Positions 44,156 through 59,799 of a stretch of 64,000 nt of DNA are shown here, piece by piece (the stretch's first letter is position 1; every line of letters starts with the position of its first letter). The notes beneath the pieces are model-generated. The model worked only from the letters and a program-made list of their open reading frames with translations. It was not told the origin of the DNA and ran no database searches. A program made the translations under genes and the position numbers. The DNA comes from an uncultured Acidimicrobiales bacterium (GTDB lineage: Bacteria; Actinomycetota; Acidimicrobiia; Acidimicrobiales; VFJN01). The stretch is from assembly GCA_963778415.1 (NCBI GenBank), contig CAVZUI010000002.1, positions 585,663 to 649,662 on the forward strand. The letters run 5' to 3'.

Positions 44156-45002
44156 ATGCGTCTCACCAAGCACCACGGCCTGGGCAACGACTTCCTCGTC
44201 CTGCTCGACCCCGACGCCTCCCACCCGCTCGATGCCGAGGTGGCGCGCGCCCTGTGCGACCGCCACACGGGCATCGGCGCCGACGGCCTCATCCGGGCCA
44301 CGCCGGCCGAGCCGGGCGAGGGCGCGACGTCACCGATGGAGCTGCTCAACGCCGACGGCTCCCGGGCCGAGATGAGCGGCAACGGCATCCGGTGCCTGGC
44401 CCAGGCGCGTCCTCCTCGCCGATCCCGGGCTCGGCCCCACCGATCCCCATCGTCACCGACGCCGGGCTGCGCACGGTCACGGTCCACGACCAGGTCGACG
44501 CCGTGACCCACAGCCTGTCGCGTCGGCGATGGGCACCGGCCGAGGTCGAGGGCGAGGCGCCCGAATGGGACGGCGGCGCCGTCGGCCGCGCCGCTGCTCG
44601 TCGACATGGGCAACCCGCACCTCGTGCTCGACCTGTCGGCCGCCGGCCCGGGCGCGCTCGACGCCGTCGACCTGGTCGAGCTCGGCGAGACCGTCAACGG
44701 CAAGGTCCCGGGCGGCGCCAACGTGCGAGCTGCTCACCGCGGCCGACCAGCCCGGCGACCGTCGCCATGCCGCGCCTACGAGCGCGGGGTCGGGCCGACG
44801 CTGGCCTGCGGCACCGGGGCGTGCGCGGCCGCGGCCGCCGCCACGAGTCTGGGGCCTGGCCGGCGACCGGGTGCCGGTCGCGCAGCCGGGCGGCACCGCC
44901 GAGGTCACGCTCGGCGAGCCGGCCGCCGGCGACGAGGTCGTTCTCCGGTGGCCGGCCACCTACGTGGCCGAGATCGGCCTCGGAGCGTCGCCGTGGCGCT
45001 GA
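44156..45002 (+). pseudogene. dapF: Diaminopimelate epimerase, at least 5 frameshifts
   Basis: [12 protein letters not shown] and [13 protein letters not shown] (frame 2). [12 protein letters not shown] (frame 1). MGNPHLVLDL (frame 2). ELLTAADQPGD (frame 0). YERGVGPTLACGTGACAAA (frame 2). GDRVPVAQPGGTAEVTL..stop (frame 0). Confidence 0.85.
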
Positions 45003-46293
45003 TCGAACGGACCTTCCGGGAGAGGATCGTCCTGGTCGGCGTCACCATCCCGCCCGAGACGCGTCGAGGACACCGAGCAGCCGGCTCGACGAGCTGGCCC
45101 TGCTGGTCGACACCGCCGGCGCCGACGAGGTCGGCCGGGTCGTCCAGCGCCGCCAGTCGCCCGATCCGCCCACCTACGTCGGCAAGGGCAAGGCCGAGGA
45201 GCTGCGCGAGGTGGCGCTCGCCATCGACTGCGACACGGTCGTGTTCGACGACGAGCTCACGCCCGCCCAGCAGTGCAACCTCGAGAAGATGCTCGGTCGC
45301 ACCGCCATCGACCGCACCGCGGTGATCCTCGACATCTTCGCCCAGAACGCCCACAGCCAGGAGGGCAAGGCCCAGGTCGAGCTGGCCCAGCTCCGCTACC
45401 GGCTGCCGCGGCTGCGGCGCCGGGCACGGCGCGCTGTCGCAGCAGGCCGGCGGCATGTCGGCCGCGGGCGGCGCCCGCATCGGCACCCGTGGCCCGGGCG
45501 AGACGCAGCTCGAGGTCGACCGCCGGCGCATCGTGCGCCGCATCCACAAGCTCGAGGCCGACCTGCGCGAGATCGACCGCCACCGCGCGACCCAGCGCAA
45601 GGCGCAGCGCCGGGGCCAGCTCGCCAACGGTCGCCATCGTCGGCTACACGAACGCCGGCAAGTCGACGCTGCTCAACCGGCTCACCGACGCCGGCGTGCT
45701 GGTCGAGGACCGCCTCTTCGCCACCCTCGACGCCACCACCCGCCGGCTCGAGCTGCCCGGCGGCGAGGCCGTGCTGCTCACCGACACCGTCGGGTTCATC
45801 CGCAAGCTGCCCCACCAGCTCGTCGAGGCGTTCCGGTCGACGCTCGACGGTCGCGGTCGACGCCGACCTCCTCGTGCACGTGGTCGACGCCGTCGGCCCC
45901 CGACCCCGAGTGGCAAGATGCGACGCCGTCCGCGACGTGCTCGCGCGAGATCGGCGCCGACGACGTGCCCGAGCTGGTGGCGTTCAACAAGGCCGACCTG
46001 GCACCCGACGAGGCCGAGCGGCTGCGCGACGACCCACGAGGGCTCGGTGGCGTTCAGCGCCGCCACGGCGAGGGCATCGACGAGCTGCTCGTGGCCACGA
46101 TCGGCGACCGGCTCCGCGCGCTGACGACGGTCGTCGAGCTGGTCGATCCCCTTCGACCGCGGCGACGTGCTGGCCGCCGTCCACCGGGAGGGCGAGGTGC
46201 TCGAGCGAGGAGGCCGGCGAGGGCGGCATGCGCCTGCGCGGCCGCTTCGACGACGCCTCGGTCGGCCGCTTCCGCGAGTACGTGGTCGGCTGA
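44993..46293 (+). pseudogene. hflX: GTPase HflX, about 11 frameshifts
   Basis: Conserved blocks are scattered over all three frames: ERIVLVGV; [50 protein letters not shown]; [15 protein letters not shown]; [33 protein letters not shown]; LLVHVVDA; LVAFNKADL; GEGIDELL. Confidence 0.85.
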
Positions 46294-46294
46294 C

Positions 46295-47402
46295 GTGGGC
46301 GCTCCCCGCGGCTTCGAGCCGCCGCCGTACCCGTACGACCGGCTCGACGTGCTGCACAAGGAGGCCGAGAAGGTCCCCGGCGGGGTCGTCGACCTGTCGA
46401 TCGGCACGCCCTGCGACCCGCCGCCGGCGGTCGTCGTCGAGGCGCTCGGATCGTCGGGCGCCGAGCGCGGCTACCCGCCGTCGGTCGGCACCGCCGCGTT
46501 CCGCGAGGCGGCCGCGGGCTGGCTCGACCGCCGCTTCGGCGTCGCCGTCGACCCGCAGCACCTGGCCGCCTGCATGGGCACCAAGGAGTTCGTGGCCGGG
46601 GTCCCGCACTGGCTGCGCCTCCGCTCGCCCGACCGCGACACCGTGCTGTACCCGCGATCAGCTACCCGACCTACGCCATGGGGGCGACCCTCGCCGGGTG
46701 CCGGGCGGTGCCCTACGCCGACGCTCGCCGACGTCGACCCGGCCGACGCGGCCCGTGCGCTGTGCCTGTGGGTGAACTCACCGGCCAACCCGACCGGCGA
46801 GCTCGACGACCTCGGCGCCGCCGCGGCGTGGGGTCGGGCGCACGACGTCCCGGTCCTGTCGGACGAGTGCTACATCGAGTTCACCTGGGACGGGCCCGGC
46901 GCGCACGATCCTCGGCACGAGGGCCTCGACGGCGTGCTGGCCGTCCACTCGCTGTCGAAGCGCTCGAACCTCGCCGGCGCCCGGGCCGGCTTCTACGCCG
47001 GCGACCCCGATCTCGTCCACTACCTGTCCGAGGTGCGCAAGCACGCCGGGTTCATGGTGCCCGGGCCCGTGCAGGCCGCGGCGGTGGCCGCCTTCGGCGA
47101 CGACGCCCACGTCGACGAGCAGCGGGCCCGCTACCAGGGCCGCCTCGACGCTGATGGTCGACGCGCCTCGCGACCGCCGGGGTCGACTGCCCGTCGCCCG
47201 ACGGGGCGTTCTACGTGTGGGCGCCGGCACCGGACGGCGACGCCTGGGCGCTGGCCCACCGGCTCGCCGCCGAGGGCGGGGCCATCGTGGCGCCCGGGCG
47301 AGCTTCTACGGCGAGGCGGGCGCCGGTCACGTGCGCATCGCCGTGGTGCAGCCCGACGAGAAGATCGCCCTCGTCGCGCGGCGACTCGCCGCGGCGCGGT
47401 GA
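46295..47402 (+). pseudogene. dapC: Succinyldiaminopimelate aminotransferase, at least 5 frameshifts
   Basis: PYPYDRLD..DLSIGTPCDPPP..GYPPSVGT, then SYPTYAMGATLAG in another frame. NSPANPTG..SDECYIEF..HSLSKRSNLAGARAGFYAGD (PLP lysine block). FYVWAPAPDGDAW and FYGEAGAGHVRIAVVQP lie in further frames. Confidence 0.8.
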
Positions 47403-47415
47403 CGAGCTGACCCAG

Positions 47416-48243
47416 ATGCATCCCTCGCCCACCGGCTCGGCCGCACCGCCGGGCTGGCCCACGTCGACCGCCGGTGTCCCGCCCGCACGCCCGTCGGCGG
47501 GGCCGTCATGGTGGTGGTTCGTCGTCGCCGGCCTCGTGGCTGTCCTCGGCGTGGCCGTGGGGGTGGCCGTGATCGTGGCCGGCGTCGTCGGCCTCGCCGA
47601 CAAGGTCGAGGACTTCGATCGTGCCTTCATGCCCACGACCCTCGAGGTCGAGATCACCGATCCCGGCGGCTACTCGATCTACCACGAGTACGACGGGCTC
47701 TCGTCGGTCGAGCTCCGCGACGACCCGAACGTCGCGGTCACCGACCCGTCCGGGAGCGACGTGCCCCTCCGCCCGTACGGCTCGTCGGTGAGCTACGGCG
47801 TGAGCGGCCACGACGGGGTGGGCGTGTACACGTTCCGTGCCGACGAGCCCGGCACCTACGAGGTTCAGGCGTCGATGCCGTTCTCGGACTCGAGTCGCGA
47901 CGTGATCGCCGTCGGACCCGGGCTCGGCACGGGCCTGGCGGTCGCCATCGTCGCCGGCATCGCCCTCATCGGCGTGGGAGTCGTCGGGGGCATCGTCATC
48001 GCCATCGTCGTCGGGGTGATGCGGGGTCGCCGCCGTCGCGCCGCGATGCCTCCGCCCGTCATCGGGTGGGGTCCGCCGGCCGGCCAGTGGGGTCCGCCCG
48101 CCTGGCCGGCGGGGCCCGCCGCACCCGGGTGGGGGCCGGGACCAGCCGCCCCCTCGGCCCCGGGTGCCTGGTCGAACCCGCCGCCACCGCCGCCCCCGCC
48201 GCCTCCGGCGCCGCCTCAGGACGCACCCGGGCGCGACGCCTGA
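47416..48243 (+). CDS. Membrane protein with two TM helices and a Pro-rich tail
   Basis: Intact 275 aa. First TM is WWWFVVAGLVAVLGVAVGVAVIVAGVV, followed by a ~130-aa extracytoplasmic domain. Second TM is LAVAIVAGIALIGVGVVGGIVIAIVVGV. The tail includes PPPPPPPPPP. Confidence 0.6.
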   Translation: MHPSPTGSAAPPGWPTSTAGVPPARPSAGPSWWWFVVAGLVAVLGVAVGVAVIVAGVVGLADKVEDFDRAFMPTTLEVEITDPGGYSIYHEYDGLSSVELRDDPNVAVTDPSGSDVPLRPYGSSVSYGVSGHDGVGVYTFRADEPGTYEVQASMPFSDSSRDVIAVGPGLGTGLAVAIVAGIALIGVGVVGGIVIAIVVGVMRGRRRRAAMPPPVIGWGPPAGQWGPPAWPAGPAAPGWGPGPAAPSAPGAWSNPPPPPPPPPPAPPQDAPGRDA

Positions 48244-51754: not shown

Positions 51755-52393
51755 TCAGCGCTCGGGCGCCAGCTTCTCGAACTCGTACGACAGCGCCTCG
51801 CGCGCGGTGCGGAGCTGGGTCTCGACCGACTCGAGGGAGGCGAGGAACGTGCGGGACCAGGCGAGGCGACGTTCGAGGTCCTCCAGCTCGGGCGAGTGGT
51901 TCTCGCCCTCGCGGGCTCGTAGCTCGACGACCGCCTGCTCCGCCGCCGCGTCGGCCTGCGAGGTCGCATCGTCCAACACTCGCTGCGCGTGGTCGTGCGC
52001 CTCTGCCGCCAGGCGGCGGCAGTACTCCTGCGTCTGGGCGACGTAGGCGTCGGCCTCCTGTTGCGCCCGCGACAGGATGTTCACGGCGTCGACGGTGGCC
52101 GACGAGGTGTCGGGCGACCGACCGTTCACGTCCTCGGTGCGCGACTCGCTCTGCTCCCGCTGCCATTGCACCAGCGTGTTCTTGTAGTGCGTGACCTTGG
52201 CCCGCAGCGAGGTCTCGGCCGCGTCGCGGGTGGCGATCTCGTCGGCGACGCGCTGGAGGAACGACGCCACCTCGTCGTCGGCCAGGCCGCGACGCCCGAT
52301 CGGCGTGCGCGAGAACTGCATGGACCGCACTCGGTCGGGGGTGAGGCGCTGGACCGTCCGCCTGGCGTACTGCTCGTCGGCGGTATCGGTCAT
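51755..52393 (-). CDS. DivIVA domain protein
   Basis: DivIVA N-terminal signature LTPDRVRSMQFSRTPIGRRGLADDEVASFLQRVADEI followed by coiled-coil-like sequence. ATGA overlap with the upstream globin/FNR gene. Confidence 0.75.
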   Translation of the reverse strand: MTDTADEQYARRTVQRLTPDRVRSMQFSRTPIGRRGLADDEVASFLQRVADEIATRDAAETSLRAKVTHYKNTLVQWQREQSESRTEDVNGRSPDTSSATVDAVNILSRAQQEADAYVAQTQEYCRRLAAEAHDHAQRVLDDATSQADAAAEQAVVELRAREGENHSPELEDLERRLAWSRTFLASLESVETQLRTAREALSYEFEKLAPER

Positions 52394-53521
52394 GGCGTCG
52401 TCTCCTGGCTCCCGAACTCCTCGACATGCACGAGCGTGGCTGTGGCGCCCGCCTGCATCACCGTTGCGCGGCTGCCGCGCACCATCTCGGGTGAGCCGCA
52501 GATGTAGATCTCCTGTTCCGGCCAAGCTCCGGTGCGCAGCGCCACGTCGACCACCGTGCCCGACTCGACCGTGCCGGTGCGACTCGGCTCCTCCGACACG
52601 CACGGCACGAGGCGCAGCCAGTCGAGCCTGTCGGCCAGCGCGGCCATGGCCGGACAGGTCGTAGAGCTCGCGGTGGTAGCGGGCGCCCCAGAACAGGTGC
52701 ACGCGGCGGAACCCGCCGTCGGACTCGATCTGGGCGATCAGCGCCTTCATGGGGGCCAGCCCGGTGCCGCCCGCCAGCATCACGACGTCACGCCCCGGGC
52801 CGAGCGGCATCGTGAGGCGGGTGCCGACGGCGGCGCCCCCGCGCAGGACGTCACCCGTGTGGGTGCTCTGCACGATGGCCGTGCTGACCGGACCGCCGCC
52901 CACGAGGCGCACGTGCAGCTCGAACGAGCCGTCGGGCCCCGGGAGGGATGCAGGCGTGTAGTACCGCCACAGGCGAGGGCGTTGCGGGACCTCCACGGCG
53001 ATCGACTGGCCGGCGAGGTAGGGGAGCGGGGCGTGCGGCGCCACCCGCAGCACGGCGACGTCGACGCTGCGCCGCTCGATGTCCACCACCGTGAGGTCCC
53101 ACCACGGGGGCTGGTCGACGACGGCGTCGGCGGCACCGATCATCACCTCGGCGACGATGCCGTAGGCGGTCGCCCAGTCCTGCGCCACGTCGGTCGTCCA
53201 ATCGGAGCCGCTGAAGTGCTCGAGCGTGGCCAGCAGCGCCTGGCCGACCGCGGGGTAGTGGTCGCGGACGACGGCGAACTTCCGGTGGTCGCGCCCGAGC
53301 TGCTGCAGCACGGGCACCACCGAATCGAGGTCGTCGACGCCGCTGACCACCTGACCGAGGGCGGTCACGAGCTTGTCGCGCTGGTTCGCCATGCTGACGG
53401 GGAACATCTCGCGCGTGTGGGGGTGGTGGAGGAACAGGTACGAGTAGAAGAACAGCGGGACCTGGTCGCCGTGCGCGGCGACCAGGCCCCAGCTCTTCTT
53501 CAGGCGTATCGGGTCGACCAC
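52390..53521 (-). pseudogene. Globin-FNR fusion (flavohemoprotein-like oxidoreductase), one frameshift (~52648-52655)
   Basis: N-terminal globin domain (KKSWGLVAAHGDQVPLFFYSYLFLHHPHTREMF). FAD motif RYYTPAS and NAD(P) motif VMLAGGTGLAPM. The C-terminus (IYICGSPEMV) is in ORF 52390..52647. Confidence 0.75.
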
Positions 53522-53523
53522 GC

Positions 53524-53925
53524 CTACGCGGTGGCGGGGATCTCGACGATGTCGGCCTTGACCCCCGCCACGACGCCCCCGGCCGCGGCCAACACCTCGT
53601 CGTCGGCCCCGAGGTCGGTGAGCACGGCGACGAGGTAGCCGACCACCTTGTCGTAGTGGTCGCTGGTGATGCCGAGGCCGCGGTGGGCCTCGCCGAGGTC
53701 GCGCCCGTCGTACTCGGCCGGGCCGCCGAGCACCTGCGACAGGAGCAGGACCTGGTGGCGCTTCACCTGGGACACGTCGGCGTCGGCGAAGTACGGCGCC
53801 AGCTCGTCGTCGTCGAGGACACGGGCGTAGAACTGCTCGACGACCTCGCGGATCGCCGGCGTCCCGCCGACCCGGTCGTAGTGGCTCTCAGGGGTCGCGG
53901 ACGCGTCGGTCGTCTCGGCAGCCAT
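53524..53925 (-). CDS. glbN: Group I truncated hemoglobin (trHbN)
   Basis: GGGAGG RBS. YDRVGGTPAIREVVEQFYARVLDDDELAPYF..QVLGGPAEYDGRDLGEAHRGLGIT aligns by eye with mycobacterial GlbN. The stop is 2 nt before the next gene's start. Confidence 0.85.
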   Translation of the reverse strand: MAAETTDASATPESHYDRVGGTPAIREVVEQFYARVLDDDELAPYFADADVSQVKRHQVLLLSQVLGGPAEYDGRDLGEAHRGLGITSDHYDKVVGYLVAVLTDLGADDEVLAAAGGVVAGVKADIVEIPATA

Positions 53926-54064
53926 GGGGTGGACCTCCCAGCACTCAGTCCGTGAGCGTCGCGGCAACGCTCGGACAGGACGCTACCGCAGTCCCCGGGG
54001 TGCCGGACCAAACGCTGTGCGTGGGTAGGAAGGTGAGGCCCTACCTGGCGTATAGCTTTCAGAC

Positions 54065-54535
54065 GTGCGCTGCGCCGCCTGTGGGCATCTCGACTCGAAG
54101 GTGGTCGACTCGCGCCAGTCCGACGACGGCGGGGCCATCCGCCGTCGCCGCCAGTGCCTGGCGTGCGGCACCCGGTTCACGACGTTCGAGCGGCCCGAGT
54201 CCTCGGGGCTGACGGTGCTCAAGCGTTCGGGCGAACGCGAGGCGTTCGACCGCGCCAAGGTGGTCTCGGGCATCCAGGCCGCGGTGAAGTCCCGCCCCGT
54301 CGGCTCGGGCGAAGCCGAGGCCCTGGCGCTCGCGGTCGAGGACGAGATGCGGGGGCTGCCGAGCGGCGAGGTCACGAGCGAGCGCATCGGTCGGGCCGTG
54401 CTCGAGGGCCTGCGCGAGCTCGACGTCATCGCCGCAGTGCGGTTCGCGTCGGTCTACAAGGGGTTCGACGACCTGGCCGACTTCGAGCGCGAGCTGACGC
54501 TGCTGACCAAGCGCACCGCGCCCAAGCGGCACTGA
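54065..54535 (+). CDS. nrdR: Transcriptional repressor NrdR
   Basis: Zinc ribbon MRCAACGHLDSKVVDSR..RRRRQCLACGTRFTTFE followed by an ATP-cone. Confidence 0.93.
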   Translation: MRCAACGHLDSKVVDSRQSDDGGAIRRRRQCLACGTRFTTFERPESSGLTVLKRSGEREAFDRAKVVSGIQAAVKSRPVGSGEAEALALAVEDEMRGLPSGEVTSERIGRAVLEGLRELDVIAAVRFASVYKGFDDLADFERELTLLTKRTAPKRH

Positions 54536-54545
54536 TCGCGCCGGT

Positions 54546-55322
54546 TCAGCGGGCGCGCACGTACCGCAGGAAGAGGTTGCCGTCGGCGAGGACCACGCGG
54601 GCGAGCGCGTGATGGCGGCCGACCACGGGCGCCGGGCCACGGGCGATGCGCGCTCCGGTGCCCGCCACCATGGTGGGCGAGATCGTGAGGCACAGCTCGT
54701 CGAGCAGGTCGTCGGTCACGAGCTGGCCGAGCGTGAGGGGCCCGCCCTCGCACACCACGACGTGGGCGCCCAGCTCGTCGTGGAGCAGCGCGAAGGCGCG
54801 TGCCCAGTCGACCTGCTCGTCGCCGACGACGTGGACGTCGGCCACCTCCTCGAGGGCGCGGCGCCGGGCGGGGTCGGCGGACGCCACGGTGAGGACGAGG
54901 GGGCGGGCGTCGGGTGGCGCCTCGGCGAAGAACCGGCGAGTCGGCTCGATGGCGAGCGAGGCCGAGGTCACCGCGATGCGCGGCGTCGGCGACTGACCCC
55001 GGGCGACCCGCTGCTCGCGGACGCGGGCCGCCGGGCGGCTGGGGCCGTAGTCCTCGGTGGTGACCGTGGCGGCTCCGGCCACGATGACGTCGGCCACCCC
55101 GCGGATGGCGGCGAACATGGCCTTGTCGTCGGGGCCCGCGAGGCCGCCCGAGCGGCCCTCCGTGTCGGTGGCGCTGCCGTCGATCGATCCGATCATGTTG
55201 GCGAGGACCCAGGGGCGGCCCGAGGGTGCGGGGCGATCGTCGCCGGCGACCATCGCCACCGGATCGAGGGGGTCGTCGTCTCCGCGGTCGTCCGTCGGAG
55301 GGGCCGGCCACAGGATCCGCAT
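54546..55322 (-). CDS. RibD C-terminal domain / pyrimidine reductase family protein
   Basis: WVLANMIGSIDGSAT..GPDDKAMFAAIRGVADVIVAGAATV..VVCEGGPLTLGQL..DELCLTISP. Confidence 0.75.
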   Translation of the reverse strand: MRILWPAPPTDDRGDDDPLDPVAMVAGDDRPAPSGRPWVLANMIGSIDGSATDTEGRSGGLAGPDDKAMFAAIRGVADVIVAGAATVTTEDYGPSRPAARVREQRVARGQSPTPRIAVTSASLAIEPTRRFFAEAPPDARPLVLTVASADPARRRALEEVADVHVVGDEQVDWARAFALLHDELGAHVVVCEGGPLTLGQLVTDDLLDELCLTISPTMVAGTGARIARGPAPVVGRHHALARVVLADGNLFLRYVRAR

Positions 55323-55795
55323 GCAGCGTGCACGGTAGCGAGGCCGGCCGGACCGGTGGACAAGATGGCCGGCTGGGGAAATCGCGGTGACCTTTCCACC
55401 CGCAATTCACAGGTTCATCCTCTAGTCGTCCACAGCCCATTGCCCGTAGGTTGCCCTTCGTGCAACTGTGCTCCGGCGCGGACGAGCGGAATGGCGGTTG
55501 TCGCTTCCGTGTCTGTGGTGGGCTGAGCGACTCCTGAGGGCGAGCCGTCCACCGGGTGGTGGGGGGTTGCGGTCTTCAACCTGCGAGTCCGCGCCGGGCC
55601 GGTCGCACGAGAGCTGGGTCGGGTCGACGGGGGGCATCCTCTTCGGGGGTGTCTGCGCCGTGCCCCACCGCCGCGTCTCGTGCGCTCGACGCCGTCCGCG
55701 CCGGGGACAGGGGCACAGATCCGGGAAGTTTCAGGGTCCTCGCAGCGTTGAACAAGTGCTGTCCGGAACGGGTGCGTCACGATGTCGGGAAGCCC

Positions 55796-55824
55796 TTGAC
55801 GGTGTAGTTACACGGCTGTAGTTT
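55796..55824 (+). promoter_or_regulatory. Sigma-70-like promoter of nrdJ (TTGACG-17 nt-TAGTTT)
   Basis: Read directly. The -35 is at 55796-55801 and the -10 at 55819-55824, about 105 nt before the nrdJ ATG. Confidence 0.45.
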
Positions 55825-55828
55825 CCAC

Positions 55829-55841
55829 CCACATCTTGTGG
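55829..55841. promoter_or_regulatory. NrdR box candidate 1 (CCACATCTTGTGG)
   Basis: Palindrome with an ACA..TGT core, resembling the NrdR-box consensus. It starts 5 nt after the -10. Confidence 0.55.
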
Positions 55842-55854
55842 CTCCCCGGTCAGT

Positions 55855-55871
55855 TACCACAAGCCCTGGTA
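55855..55871. promoter_or_regulatory. NrdR box candidate 2 (TACCACAAGCCCTGGTA)
   Basis: Second palindrome about 28 nt centre-to-centre from box 1. NrdR boxes usually occur in pairs about three helical turns apart. Confidence 0.45.
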
Positions 55872-55929
55872 GCTGGCTCAGGTCGCAACTCTCCCCACCG
55901 CGATCTCCGAACGACCTGGAGGAATCCCC

Positions 55930-58867
55930 ATGGCACTCGCACCCGAGCAGGCCGGCATCGGCATCCGCCGCCACTTCACCACCGACGGCGTCCACCCCTA
56001 CGACGAGGTCGACGTGGGAGCGGCGCGACGCCCGGATCACCAACTTCCGGGACGGGTCGGTCGCCTTCGAGCAGCTCGGCGTCGAGTTCCCCACCACCTG
56101 GTCGCTGAACGCCACCAACATCGTCGCCCAGAAGTACTTCCGCGGCACCCTCGGCACCCCCGAGCGCGAGTCGTCGCTGCGCCAGGTCATCGACCGGGTC
56201 GCCGACACGATCACCCAGTGGGGCGTCGAGGGCGGCTACTTCGTCGACGACGACGAGGCCGAGACCTTCAACGCCGAGCTCAAGCACCTCCTCGTCACCC
56301 AGAAGGCCGCCTTCAACTCGCCGGTGTGGTTCAACATCGGCGTCCCGGGCGTGCCCGCAGCAGGCGCTCGGCCTGCTTCATCCTGTCGCGTCGACGACAA
56401 GATGGACTCGATCCTCAACTGGTACGTCGAGGAGGGCACGATCTTCAAGGGCGGCTCCGGCTCGGGCATCAACCTGTCCCGCATCCGCTCGTCGGTCGAG
56501 CTGCTCAAGGGCGGCGGCACCGCCTCGGGCCCGGTCAGCTTCATGCGGGGCGCCGACGCGTCGGCCGGCACCATCAAGTCGGGCGGCAAGACCCGCCGCG
56601 CCGCCAAGATGGTCATCCTCAACGTCGACCACCCCGACGTCGAGGAGTTCATCTGGGTGCAAGGCCCGCGAGGAGAAGAAGATCCGCGTCCTCGAGGAGG
56701 CCGGCTTCGACATGAGCCTCGACGGCACGGACATGGCGCTCGGTCCAGTACCAGAACGCCAACAACTCGGTGCGGGTCACCGACGAGTTCATGCAGGCCG
56801 TCGTCGACGACGCCGACTGGCACCTGCGCGGCCGTCACCACCGGCGAGGTCGTGCAGACCGTGCAAGGCCCGCGACCTGATGCGCCAGATCTCGCCAGGC
56901 GGCCTGGGAGTGCGCCGACCCCGGCATGCAGTTCGACACCACGATCAACCACTGGCACACCGCCGCCAACACCGGCCGCATCAACGGCTCGAACCCGTGC
57001 AGCGAGTACATGCACCTCGACAACTCGGCGTGCAACCTGGCCAGCCTCAACCTGCTGAAGTTCCTCGACCTCCGACGACGGGCGCCGGCACCACCGACAC
57101 CTTCGACGTCGAGGGCTTCAAGCACGCCGTCGAGGTCATCTTCACCGGCCAGGAGATCCTCGTCGGCCGGGCCGACTACCCGACCGAGGCGATCGGCGAC
57201 ACCTCCCGGCGCGTTCCGCCAGCTCGGCATCGGCTACGCCAACCTCGGCGCCCTGCTGATGGCGCTCGGCCTGCCCTACGACACCGACGAGGGCCGGGCC
57301 TACGCCGCGGCCATCACCGTCGCTGATGACCGGCCACTCCTACGCCACGCTCGGCCCGCACCGCCGCCCGCATGGGCCCCTTCGCCGGCTACGCCGAGAA
57401 CCGCGAGCACATGCTCCGCGTCCTGCGCCAGCACCAGGAGGCGGCCGCCGCAGATCGACGAGGAGCTCGTGCCCGCCGAGCTGCTCGCGCGCCGCCCAGC
57501 AGTGCGTGGGACGAGGCCGTGCGAGCTCGGCGAGCCGCTACGGCGTGCGCAACTCGCAGGCGTCCGTGCTCGCCCCCACCGGCACGATCGGCCTGATGAT
57601 GGACTGCGACACCACCGGCATCGAGCCCGACCTCGGCCTCGTGCAAGATGAAGAAGCTGGTCGGCGGCGGCACGATGTCGATCGTCAACCAGACGGTGCC
57701 GCGGGCGCTGCGCCGCCTCGGCTACACGCCGGAGCAGATCGACGAGATCGTCGCCTACATCGACGAGCACAAGTCGATCCTCGGCGCCCCGCACCTGGCC
57801 GCCGAGCACCTGCCCGTGTTCGCCTGCTCGATGGGCGACAACACCATCCACTACTCGGGCCACGTGCGGATGATGGCGGCGGTCCAGCCGTTCATCTCCG
57901 GCGCCATCTCCAAGACGGTGAACATGCCCGAGGAGGCCACGGTCGAGGAGGTCGAGCAGCTCCACATCGACGCCTGGAAGCTCGGCGTGAAGGCCATCGC
58001 CATCTACCGCGACAACTGCAAGGTCGCCCAGCCGCTCTCGACGGCCAAGAAGGAGGCGGTGAAGGACGAGCTCGCCGAGGGCCTGATCGCCGCCGGCGCC
58101 GAGCCGCAGGTGGTCGAGAAGATCGTCGAGCGGGTCGTCGAGAAGGTCATCAAGGTGCCGACCCGCGAGAAGCTGCCCGCGCAACCGCACCTCGCGCACC
58201 TTCGAGTTCCGGGTGGCCGACTGCAAGGGCTTCGTCACCGTCGGCGAGTACGAGGACGGCCGCCCCGGCGAGATCTTCCTGCGGATCTCGAAGCAGGGCT
58301 CGACCCTCGCCGGCATCATGGACGCCTTCGCCATCTCGGTGAGCTACGGCCTCCAGTACGGCGTGCCGCTGCGGGTCTACGTCGAGACGTTCACCAACAC
58401 CCGCTTCGAGCCGGCCGGCATGACCGACGACCCCGACCTGCGGATCGCCACGCTCCCTCCTCGACTACATCTTCCGCCGCCTGGCGGTCGACTACCTGTC
58501 GCTCGAGGAGCGGCCGGAGCTCGACATCCTCACCACCGGCGAGCGCACCCAGCCGACGCTGCCCGGCGTCGAGGAGACGGTCACCGAGACCCGCCAGGGC
58601 ACCGACGATGCCGGCCGACCCGCCGAGCCTCGATCGCCAGTCAGCCCACGCTGCTCGACGACCTCAGCGACGCCCCGAAGGAGCCTCAGCCTCCTCGAGC
58701 GGGCCGGCGTCACCGACGCCGGCGCCGGCCAAGCCGATCGCCGGCCATCCCGCCCGAAGGCCAGCCACAGCGACGCCCCGTACTGCATGCAGTGCGGCGT
58801 CCAGATGCAGCGCGCCGGCTCCTGCCACGCCTGCCCCAGCTGCGGCAGCACCAGCGGCTGCAGCTGA
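55930..58867 (+). pseudogene. nrdJ: Adenosylcobalamin-dependent (class II) ribonucleotide reductase, roughly 20 frameshifts
   Basis: Conserved blocks are spread over all three frames. They include SLNATNIVAQKYFRG; AAFNSPVWFNIG; SACFILS; IFKGGSGSGINLSRIR; GTASGPVSFM; TRRAAKMVILNVDHPD; GSNPCSEYMHLDNSACNLASLNL; FRQLGIGYANLG; [19 protein letters not shown]; ISKTVNMP; and [28 protein letters not shown]. The C-terminal zinc finger is CMQCG..CHACPSCG. Confidence 0.9.
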
Positions 58868-58877
58868 TCCACCCAGT

Positions 58878-59366
58878 TCACGTCATCTCGCCGGGCAGCC
58901 TGCTGGCCTGCTCGATCCAGGAGACGAGTCGGTCTTCGTCGATGTCGTCGGCCTCGTGGATGTCGAAGTAGCGCACCTCGTCGTGCTTCGAGGCCTTGGG
59001 CGGGGCCGGATCGAGTGATGTCCCTCGGAAGAACGTCAGCTGGACGTACTGGGTGTAGCAGCGGAACGCGAGGAACCAGCCTTCTCCCTCGAAGCCGTAG
59101 AACGGTTGGTTCCACTTCACGGCCTTGTGCACGTGCGGGACCGTGCGAACGATGAGGTCGTCGAGCCGCTGGCCGATGCCTCGTTTCCACCCGGGCATGG
59201 CGGCGATGTAGTCCTGAACGGGGCCGTCACCTTCCCCTTTGGGGATCTGCGGGTTGCCGCCCGACAACAGCCTGGGTCCCGTGCCGGACTTCGCACGAGG
59301 GGTCCGGGACCTCTTGTTGGTCGAGTTCGTGCGGTCGCTCATCGGCACTCCATCGTCGGCTGGCAC
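58878..59366 (-). CDS. DUF1801 (YdhG-like) domain protein
   Basis: DYIAAMPGWKRGIGQRLDDLIVRTVPHVHKAVKWNQPFYGFEGEGWFLAFRCYTQYVQLTFFRG. The start may be the second Met at 59342. Confidence 0.7.
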   Translation of the reverse strand: MPADDGVPMSDRTNSTNKRSRTPRAKSGTGPRLLSGGNPQIPKGEGDGPVQDYIAAMPGWKRGIGQRLDDLIVRTVPHVHKAVKWNQPFYGFEGEGWFLAFRCYTQYVQLTFFRGTSLDPAPPKASKHDEVRYFDIHEADDIDEDRLVSWIEQASRLPGEMT

Positions 59367-59400
59367 CCCGCGGTGGGGTTGTGGGACGAGGTTCTCGTCA

Positions 59401-59799
59401 TCACGGCAGGCTGAGCTGCCAGGTCACGCCATGGCGATCACCGACCCAGCCGAAACGGGTGCTGAACCCGTAGTTGTCGAGAGGCATGAACACCTGGCCG
59501 CCATCGCTGAGTCGATCGAAGAGTCGCTGAAGTTCCTCGTTGTCGTCGCAGTCGATCCAGAGTGACACCGCAGGGGTGAAGCCCCATTGGTGACGGACGG
59601 GGCTGTCGGAACAGCTGAAGTCGCTGCCGGCGAGACGGAACATCGCGACCTTGACGGTGCCCTCGGGTCCGCCGTCCCCCGGGCCGTAGTGGTCGATCTC
59701 GACGAGTTCGAAGTCGTCGAAGACGTCGCGGTAGAGATCGAGTGCCGCAGTGGCGGCGCCATCCTGGAACGTCAGGAAGGTTCGAAGACCCTGGGTCAT
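59401..59799 (-). CDS. PhnB-like VOC superfamily protein (3-demethylubiquinone methyltransferase-like domain)
   Basis: MTQGLRTFLTF..VKVAMFRLAGSDFSCSDSP..FTPAVSLWIDC..FGWVGDRHGVTWQL. Confidence 0.7.
   Translation of the reverse strand: MTQGLRTFLTFQDGAATAALDLYRDVFDDFELVEIDHYGPGDGGPEGTVKVAMFRLAGSDFSCSDSPVRHQWGFTPAVSLWIDCDDNEELQRLFDRLSDGGQVFMPLDNYGFSTRFGWVGDRHGVTWQLSLP

Follow-up and report, generated by a model that had tools for sequence, protein, structure and literature searches.

The window, that is, the 64,000-nucleotide stretch of DNA analyzed here, has a G+C content of 74% and corresponds to positions 585,663-649,662 of contig C2 in a source genome of 4.79 Mb, which is assembled into 13 contigs and has a completeness estimate of only 63%. 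The relatives found in database scans are all metagenome-assembled genomes (MAGs) of Acidimicrobiales/Acidimicrobiia. The region considered here contains a class II ribonucleotide reductase (RNR) gene, nrdJ, with the following features at and upstream of it:

44228-47527, plus strand: the dapF-hflX-dapC segment (hot spot 1), a divergent tract with extra bases, used as a replicate
54065-54535, plus strand: nrdR, an intact open reading frame (ORF) of 156 residues with PF22811 (Zn_ribbon_NrdR) and PF03477 (ATP-cone) domains
54546-55322, minus strand: an intact RibD_C-family reductase gene (PF01872, E = 7e-25)
55796-55824, plus strand: a promoter-like sequence, TTGACG (55796-55801), 17 nt and TAGTTT (55819-55824), whose function is predicted from its sequence
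55829-55872, plus strand: two palindromes, CCACATCTTGTGG (55829-55841) and CCACAAGCCCTGGTAG (55857-55872), conserved in an alignment of upstream regions
55930-58867, plus strand: nrdJ, encoding a class II (adenosylcobalamin-dependent) RNR, delimited by Pfam pieces and frameshift-aware alignment
55935-58867, plus strand: a tract about 12% divergent from a conspecific contig, with a mismatch every 8-15 nt up to the stop codon

The deposited DNA holds no continuous reading frame for nrdJ. Instead, class II RNR domains are spread over at least five overlapping plus-strand ORFs in differing frames between 55838 and 59018, with the individual Pfam pieces (Ribonuc_red_2_N; Ribonuc_red_lgC barrel positions 1-107, 188-315, 373-412, and 412-523; TSCPD) falling in ORFs of all three frames. 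The same precomputed set of Ribonuc_red_2_N, Ribonuc_red_lgC barrel, and TSCPD is found in all close homologues. When the DNA is aligned with the protein of its closest intact orthologue (L095, 90.9% nucleotide identity), with frameshifts allowed, the result is a conceptual read-through of 970 residues with zero stops; one apparent in-frame stop is seen solely in MAFFT-guided codons, where the columns are alignment-dependent, and is absent from the alignment-optimized read-through. This product matches the NCBIfam model NF005122 with 1443.5 bits (cut-off 859) over profile positions 20-960 of 960, which bears out an earlier reading of the sequence alone (hereafter the sequence-only reading) that nrdJ is recognizable from its start to its C-terminal zinc finger. 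The catalytic blocks were likewise correctly described as preserved, since NPCSEY, TVNMP, and the C-terminal CMQCG...CHACPSCG all occur in the read-through. The read-through also aligns with a solved NrdJ (PDB 7b9q, E = 2e-179), including the active-site region. It is thus alike end to end to the NrdJ of Actinomycetota (NF005122; PF08471 + PF02867 + PF12637; 7b9q), with which it shares the NPCSEY block, TVNMP, TSCPD, and the C-terminal CxxC...CxxC tail, as well as the presence of NrdR and operator-like palindromes upstream. It differs in that the DNA lacks a continuous frame, a loss that we attribute to the assembly and not to the organism. In a collection of 5.8 billion proteins, the best relatives share 92% identity with it as well as the length of 970 residues. 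No intact, nearly identical version of the allele was found among genome contigs, metagenome contigs, and the same protein collection, where the best matches reach 90.9% at the nucleotide and 92% at the amino acid level, and the intact state is therefore deduced from orthologues.

In contrast to the coding sequence of nrdJ, the genes and elements directly upstream of it are undamaged. An exact look-up of the NrdR protein led to an independent conspecific contig (contig_72211 of ENA ERZ25039591, 75.7 kb), which encodes an identical NrdR and has the same gene order. The sequence-only reading had described nrdR, the promoter, and NrdR-type boxes as intact, and domain matches and alignment agree as far as intactness is concerned; nrdR is not adjacent to nrdJ, as the opposite-strand RibD_C gene lies between the two, an arrangement also present on the conspecific contig. 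The promoter-like element is kept in same-genus loci and is identical in the conspecific contig. The palindromes, the centers of which are about 30 bp apart, are likewise identical between the window and this contig and are conserved across both of the nrdJ clades described below. They resemble the NrdR-box consensus and are candidate NrdR operators. A GGAGGAA ribosome-binding site precedes nrdJ, and all these leader elements are kept in relatives from either clade. An Rfam search of positions 53500-59500 returned no riboswitch or other family.

The breaks that split the frame were located as follows:

about 56014, 56354, 56367, 56389, 56660, 56739, 56830, 56864, 56895, 57213, 57319, 57350, and 57450, plus strand: the first 13 single extra bases in nrdJ
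about 57490, 57506, 57522, 57529, 57641, 58176, 58453, 58607, 58635, 58684, 58727, 58737, and 58750, plus strand: the other 13 single extra bases in nrdJ, for 26 in all
57069-57081, plus strand: a complex break within a short loop insertion, FLD-L-(S)DD-G-AGTT, identified by three-frame translation and orthologue alignment

The complex break can be read as two +1 shifts (f2 to f0 to f1) or, equivalently, as one -1 shift, and the loop insertion around it is also present in the closest orthologues, L095 and L096. Together with the 26 +1 breaks, it brings the total to about 27 breaks in 2,938 nt, that is, one per ~110 nt, leaving about 28 frame segments. The gene is therefore split in the way that had been noted, and the figures proposed at the time, about 20 segments with a frame change every 150 nt, were slight underestimates. 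The breaks are nearly all of one sign, with 26-27 of +1 and at most one of -1.

Taken at face value, this sequence would describe an organism unable to synthesize deoxyribonucleotides. The sequence does not support such a reading. Profile searches of the entire 4.79 Mb genome gave a single PF02867 locus, namely nrdJ of the window, and no match to PF00268 (class I small subunit) or PF13597 (class III), although the assembly may be incomplete. The observation that the window holds no other RNR thus extends to the whole genome, and the suggested search for other classes yielded no nrdA/E, nrdB/F, or nrdD. In sister genomes with a completeness of 90% or more and a contamination of 5% or less, there is likewise just one RNR locus, and its nrdJ is intact, with 950-1000 codons. 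Two relatives have a split nrdJ, one being a same-genus assembly and the other coming from another family of the order. The substitution pattern, compared with the immediate neighborhood of the breaks excluded, is that of an intact gene. The differences from the nearest intact orthologues at the three codon positions (0.060/0.045/0.156) are close to those between two intact orthologues (0.066/0.041/0.167), and nrdJ of the window has 78-79 non-synonymous codon differences, compared to 71-80 for the intact pair. Neither these substitutions nor the read-through show signs of relaxed selection. An apparent excess of private amino acid changes relative to a same-genus set (85% nucleotide identity) proved false and was resolved when closer orthologues were used.

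These observations bear directly on whether nrdJ is a genuine pseudogene in a decaying genome. Such an origin would fit the lack of an open nrdJ frame in the deposited sequence and the many other genes that are broken too. However, with no other RNR class found in the genome, the function of nrdJ would be neither dispensable nor backed up, its substitutions follow the intact-gene pattern, its read-through contains no nonsense codon, and its regulator, promoter, and operator-like palindromes are unchanged. Bacterial gene decay typically favors deletions, whereas nrdJ has 26-27 insertions and 0-1 deletions. Genuine mass pseudogenization is known from Mycobacterium leprae, in which many genes have several frame breaks. 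The present genome is similar in that here too many genes have several breaks, but the breaks in the window differ in being one-signed, in lacking accompanying nonsense codons and deletions, in affecting the sole RNR, and in being absent from the conspecific contig over most of the 20 kb compared. The one-signed breaks, the status of nrdJ as sole RNR, the substitution pattern, the genome-wide excess of breaks, and the state of other assemblies together make real decay very unlikely, to the point that we give a pseudogene hardly any credence. Even less credible, to a degree that makes it negligible, is expression of nrdJ across the breaks by programmed frameshifting or recoding. This would account for a shift that is always +1, but for nothing further: it would require 27 sites in nrdJ and about 3,900 across the genome, the sites share no slippery motif, and the extra bases are missing from the orthologues and from the differing allele of the conspecific contig.

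The genome as a whole points in the same direction. A codon-usage hidden Markov model (HMM), which counts same-strand switches of frame without a nearby stop, detects 3,891 frameshift-like switches genome-wide (0.81 per kb), 81% of which are +1. The breaks are strongly over-dispersed and occur in patches of 3-10 kb, with G+C content explaining little of their density (Spearman rho 0.11). Applied to samples from three genomes of the genus that are at least 90% complete, the same detector gave 0.15, 0.07, and 0.0 switches per kb, and for two other few-contig, low-completeness assemblies it gave 0.28 per kb, mostly +1. For several relatives, the assemblies stem from a project (PMC12313526) in which metaFlye and a single Medaka round were applied to Nanopore reads only, and software of the Flye/Medaka type may also have produced the errors here. 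The many one-base breaks in otherwise conserved genes, the low completeness estimate despite few contigs, and the occurrence of the same defect in few-contig sister assemblies are all features of indel artefacts in long-read assemblies. The sequence-only reading had preferred assembly error to real decay, and the sole RNR, the stop-free 970-residue read-through, the substitutions, the +1 bias, and the genome-wide excess all speak for that preference. We are accordingly highly confident that the breaks were introduced in the consensus of an error-prone metagenome assembly, probably built from long reads only, and that the real organism has an intact NrdJ of 970 residues as its sole RNR.

The question of why the errors are clustered, raised when the hot spots were first noted, can be approached through the conspecific contig. 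Its nrdJ is intact and encodes 960 residues, but as it is a different allele (87.7% nucleotide identity) it is not a base-for-base control for nrdJ of the window. Between 47.5 kb and position 55,934, the two sequences are about 99-100% identical, with 0-7 differences per 300 nt and almost no indels; the last part of this stretch, 55300-55934, contains 1 difference. The divergent nrdJ tract then sets in with the sixth nucleotide of the gene. Beyond the nrdJ stop codon the two are unrelated, and the DNA downstream of nrdJ in the conspecific contig has no homologue in the genome of the window. Hot spot 1 (44.2-47.5 kb) is also a divergent tract, differing by 4-6% from the conspecific contig, and contains extra bases of the same type. 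Across 20.6 kb, the 26 divergent 300-nt bins hold 103 inserted bases and the 43 near-identical bins hold 8, and divergence and the number of inserted bases per bin are correlated (Spearman rho 0.64, P = 2e-9). Because the hot spots coincide with divergent tracts, the clusters probably mark tracts in which more than one allele was merged into one consensus. That the breaks are an artefact with a clustering tied to divergent tracts is our core claim, and we consider it very probable.

The context of the breaks sets them apart from classic homopolymer indel artefacts, as they are almost all insertions, typically in the form of C/G wobble doublets, and are confined to tracts that diverge from the conspecific contig. 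Short G/C runs or a methylation motif had been proposed as a shared context for the indels. Neither idea held up: only 4 of the 26 extra bases extend a homopolymer, against an expected fraction of 0.51, and no shared sequence or methylation motif was found at 52 insertion sites. The extra base instead forms a C/G doublet at the third codon position in 21 of 26 cases (null 0.277 under generous placement, P = 3e-8), such that the wobble base of the codon appears doubled, with one copy being C and the other G. Codon phase alone is a weak argument, because a phase-blind null that places C beside G, or the reverse, already yields 70% wobble doublets, compared to 23/26 (88%) observed with an alignment-based classification (P = 0.02). 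A reading in terms of polymorphism therefore rests mainly on the location of the errors in divergent tracts and on two further enrichments: orthologues carry both C and G at 14 of 19 doublet sites (43% expected, P = 0.007), and 16 of 19 doublets are at codons where C and G are synonymous (55% expected, P = 0.009). A chemistry error would not distinguish synonymous or orthologue-variable wobble sites from others. In the replicate, hot spot 1, 15 of 26 single-base insertions relative to the conspecific contig are C/G wobble doublets (P = 0.001). We found no description of a C/G wobble-doublet error mode in the literature consulted.

A systematic base-calling error at a sequence or methylation motif, inserting C beside G or the reverse, would explain why the inserted base almost always creates a CG or GC step, and the phase-blind insertion model accounts for much of the wobble association. 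However, the 52 sites have no common motif, and the enrichment of CGCG/GCGC at them is only 2-3.6-fold and is produced by the doublets themselves. An error of this type should also spread genome-wide, whereas 17 kb of near-identical sequence of the same composition has almost none, and it would show no preference for synonymous, orthologue-variable sites. We thus regard it as improbable.

Low coverage is a more serious contender as the origin of the artefact. The divergent tracts would then be strain-specific branches with few reads and ordinary noise, and polymorphism would have no direct part. Errors and divergent tracts would be expected to coincide also if a minor strain alone covers the tracts, and the genome-wide +1 bias shows that the pipeline has a general tendency to insert. 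Random noise would nevertheless lengthen homopolymers about half the time, which contrasts with the 4 of 26 seen here, and it would be blind to the synonymous and orthologue-variable sites at which the doublets are enriched (P = 0.009 and P = 0.007). On balance, we rate this origin as unlikely, though still worth about one chance in a handful.

We consider it somewhat more likely than not that mixed-allele reads produce the clustered C/G doublets. The breaks can be described as wobble C/G doublets in tracts that diverge from the conspecific contig, and we infer mixed reads as their cause. According to this model, the reads piled on the contig would carry more than one allele in some tracts. 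At a site where the alleles have C and G, respectively, usually a synonymous third position, the consensus would keep both, adding one base and shifting the frame. Where the co-assembled populations are identical, a clean tract would result, and where they differ, a hot spot, as in the nrdJ coding sequence and in dapF-hflX-dapC. The specificity for C and G could arise if "two bases, each deleted in half of the reads" scores better than "one base, substituted in half of them". In indel-dominated error models, a substitution between C and G is very improbable, and where third-position G+C is very high, C versus G accounts for most of the synonymous variation. The second allele of such a mixture would not simply be that of the conspecific contig, since the 24 private bases of the latter are all missing from nrdJ of the window.

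Neither this assembly nor its few-contig sisters can be trusted for gene calls, "pseudogenes", or estimates of completeness. As the errors are not of the homopolymer kind, polishing that targets homopolymers would leave them in place. That they are restricted to tracts in which conspecific contigs differ amounts to a testable rule for where such an assembly fails. On a broader level, it is conceivable, though unlikely, that clustered +1 "frameshifts" in long-read MAGs are the footprint of recombined or strain-variable tracts in which each balanced C/G polymorphism has been turned into two bases; in that case, indel density could be used to map microdiversity, and the errors could be corrected by rule.

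The origin of the nrdJ allele itself is a separate matter, as the conspecific contig and the genus have alleles of another clade. Its closest matches form clade B: L095 and L016, each sharing 90.9% identity with it, and three further loci at 88-89%, all with flanks that do not align with the window. Identity falls to 87.7% for the conspecific contig and to 85-86% for genomes of the genus; these make up clade A, whose upstream flanks do align. A site-by-site mosaic with the conspecific allele was rejected on the basis of the private bases mentioned above. The allele itself has only 17 private bases, the fewest of twelve sequences (24-85 in the others), and fewer synonymous differences than intact clade B pairs. 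It has clade A states at 25% of the diagnostic sites, compared to 4-13% for clade B members, and by these measures looks somewhat "central". Moreover, no more than five bases separate the start codon from the beginning of the divergent tract, cross-taxon similarity begins at the same place, and the upstream alignment shows no homology able to host a crossover. The central allele, the absence of a mosaic, and the start of the tract at the start codon favor a collapsed consensus, and we therefore favor the view that nrdJ reads of several Acidimicrobiales populations were collapsed, or hijacked, into one consensus here. Replacement of the sole essential RNR by a foreign clade B allele, transferred between genera to a position behind the species' own promoter and operator-like palindromes, is in our estimate unlikely, at about one chance in several. 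Downstream of nrdJ, exact-protein look-ups with three intact genes retrieved no other contig, and there may be a mis-join or a strain-specific island after the gene. This downstream DNA is 80-93% identical to genomes of the genus, at scattered places, which makes a chimera between families unlikely.

The class II ribonucleotide reductase gene nrdJ (window 55935-58867) and its counterpart on contig_72211, an independent conspecific contig (ENA ERZ25039591), at L175:8865-11747, are only 87.7% identical at the nucleotide level and fall into different clades, the window allele into clade B and the conspecific allele into clade A, together with the alleles of the genus. Upstream of nrdJ, the two contigs are ~99-100% identical, and within the 600-nt non-coding leader the sole difference is one additional C in the window, at position 55638. 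An Rfam search of the leader region at window 55322-55795 returned no match, and no obvious gene is found there. The switch between alleles occurs no more than 5 bases from the nrdJ start codon, and synteny between the contigs stops at the nrdJ stop codon. The clade difference reflects either a real gene replacement or a consensus collapsed from multiple populations.

At the protein level, the window allele shares with its closest intact clade-B orthologues (L095 and L096) a short loop insertion of ~6 residues after the motif NLLKFLD (window 57069-57090), which in L095 reads D-L-S-D-D-V-G-A-G-T; the clade-A nrdJ genes of the genus lack it. Intein/homing-endonuclease domains (PF14528 and PF14890) occur in some close nrdJ homologues (P0051 and P0070), whose length is ~1,370 residues.

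Frameshift-like switches, that is, same-strand frame changes with no stop nearby, called by a codon-usage HMM, occur at 0.33 per kb on contig_72211. Two gene calls of this contig, at L176:11892-12377 and L176:14274-14546, correspond to the dapF-hflX-dapC tract with dense +1 breaks in the window (44228-47527, + strand):

aminotransferase (dapC-like), fragment, 161 aa
DAP epimerase, fragment, 90 aa

Since both calls are fragmented, this tract is troublesome in the second assembly too. Elsewhere in the window, at 51755-53521, a globin-FNR gene and a DivIVA-domain gene appear as a single 588-codon ORF, within which the HMM places frame changes at ~52403 and ~52649; on contig_72211, the two genes are separate and encode 376 and 211 residues.

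In samples of two assemblies of this genus that consist of few contigs and are 63-67% complete (G005:C5 and G007:C24; L189-L192), frameshift-like switches occur at 0.28 per kb, the majority of them +1. A split nrdJ is also found in G007 and in G015, an assembly from another family of the order. The same class of artefact appears to extend to an entire group of related public MAGs.
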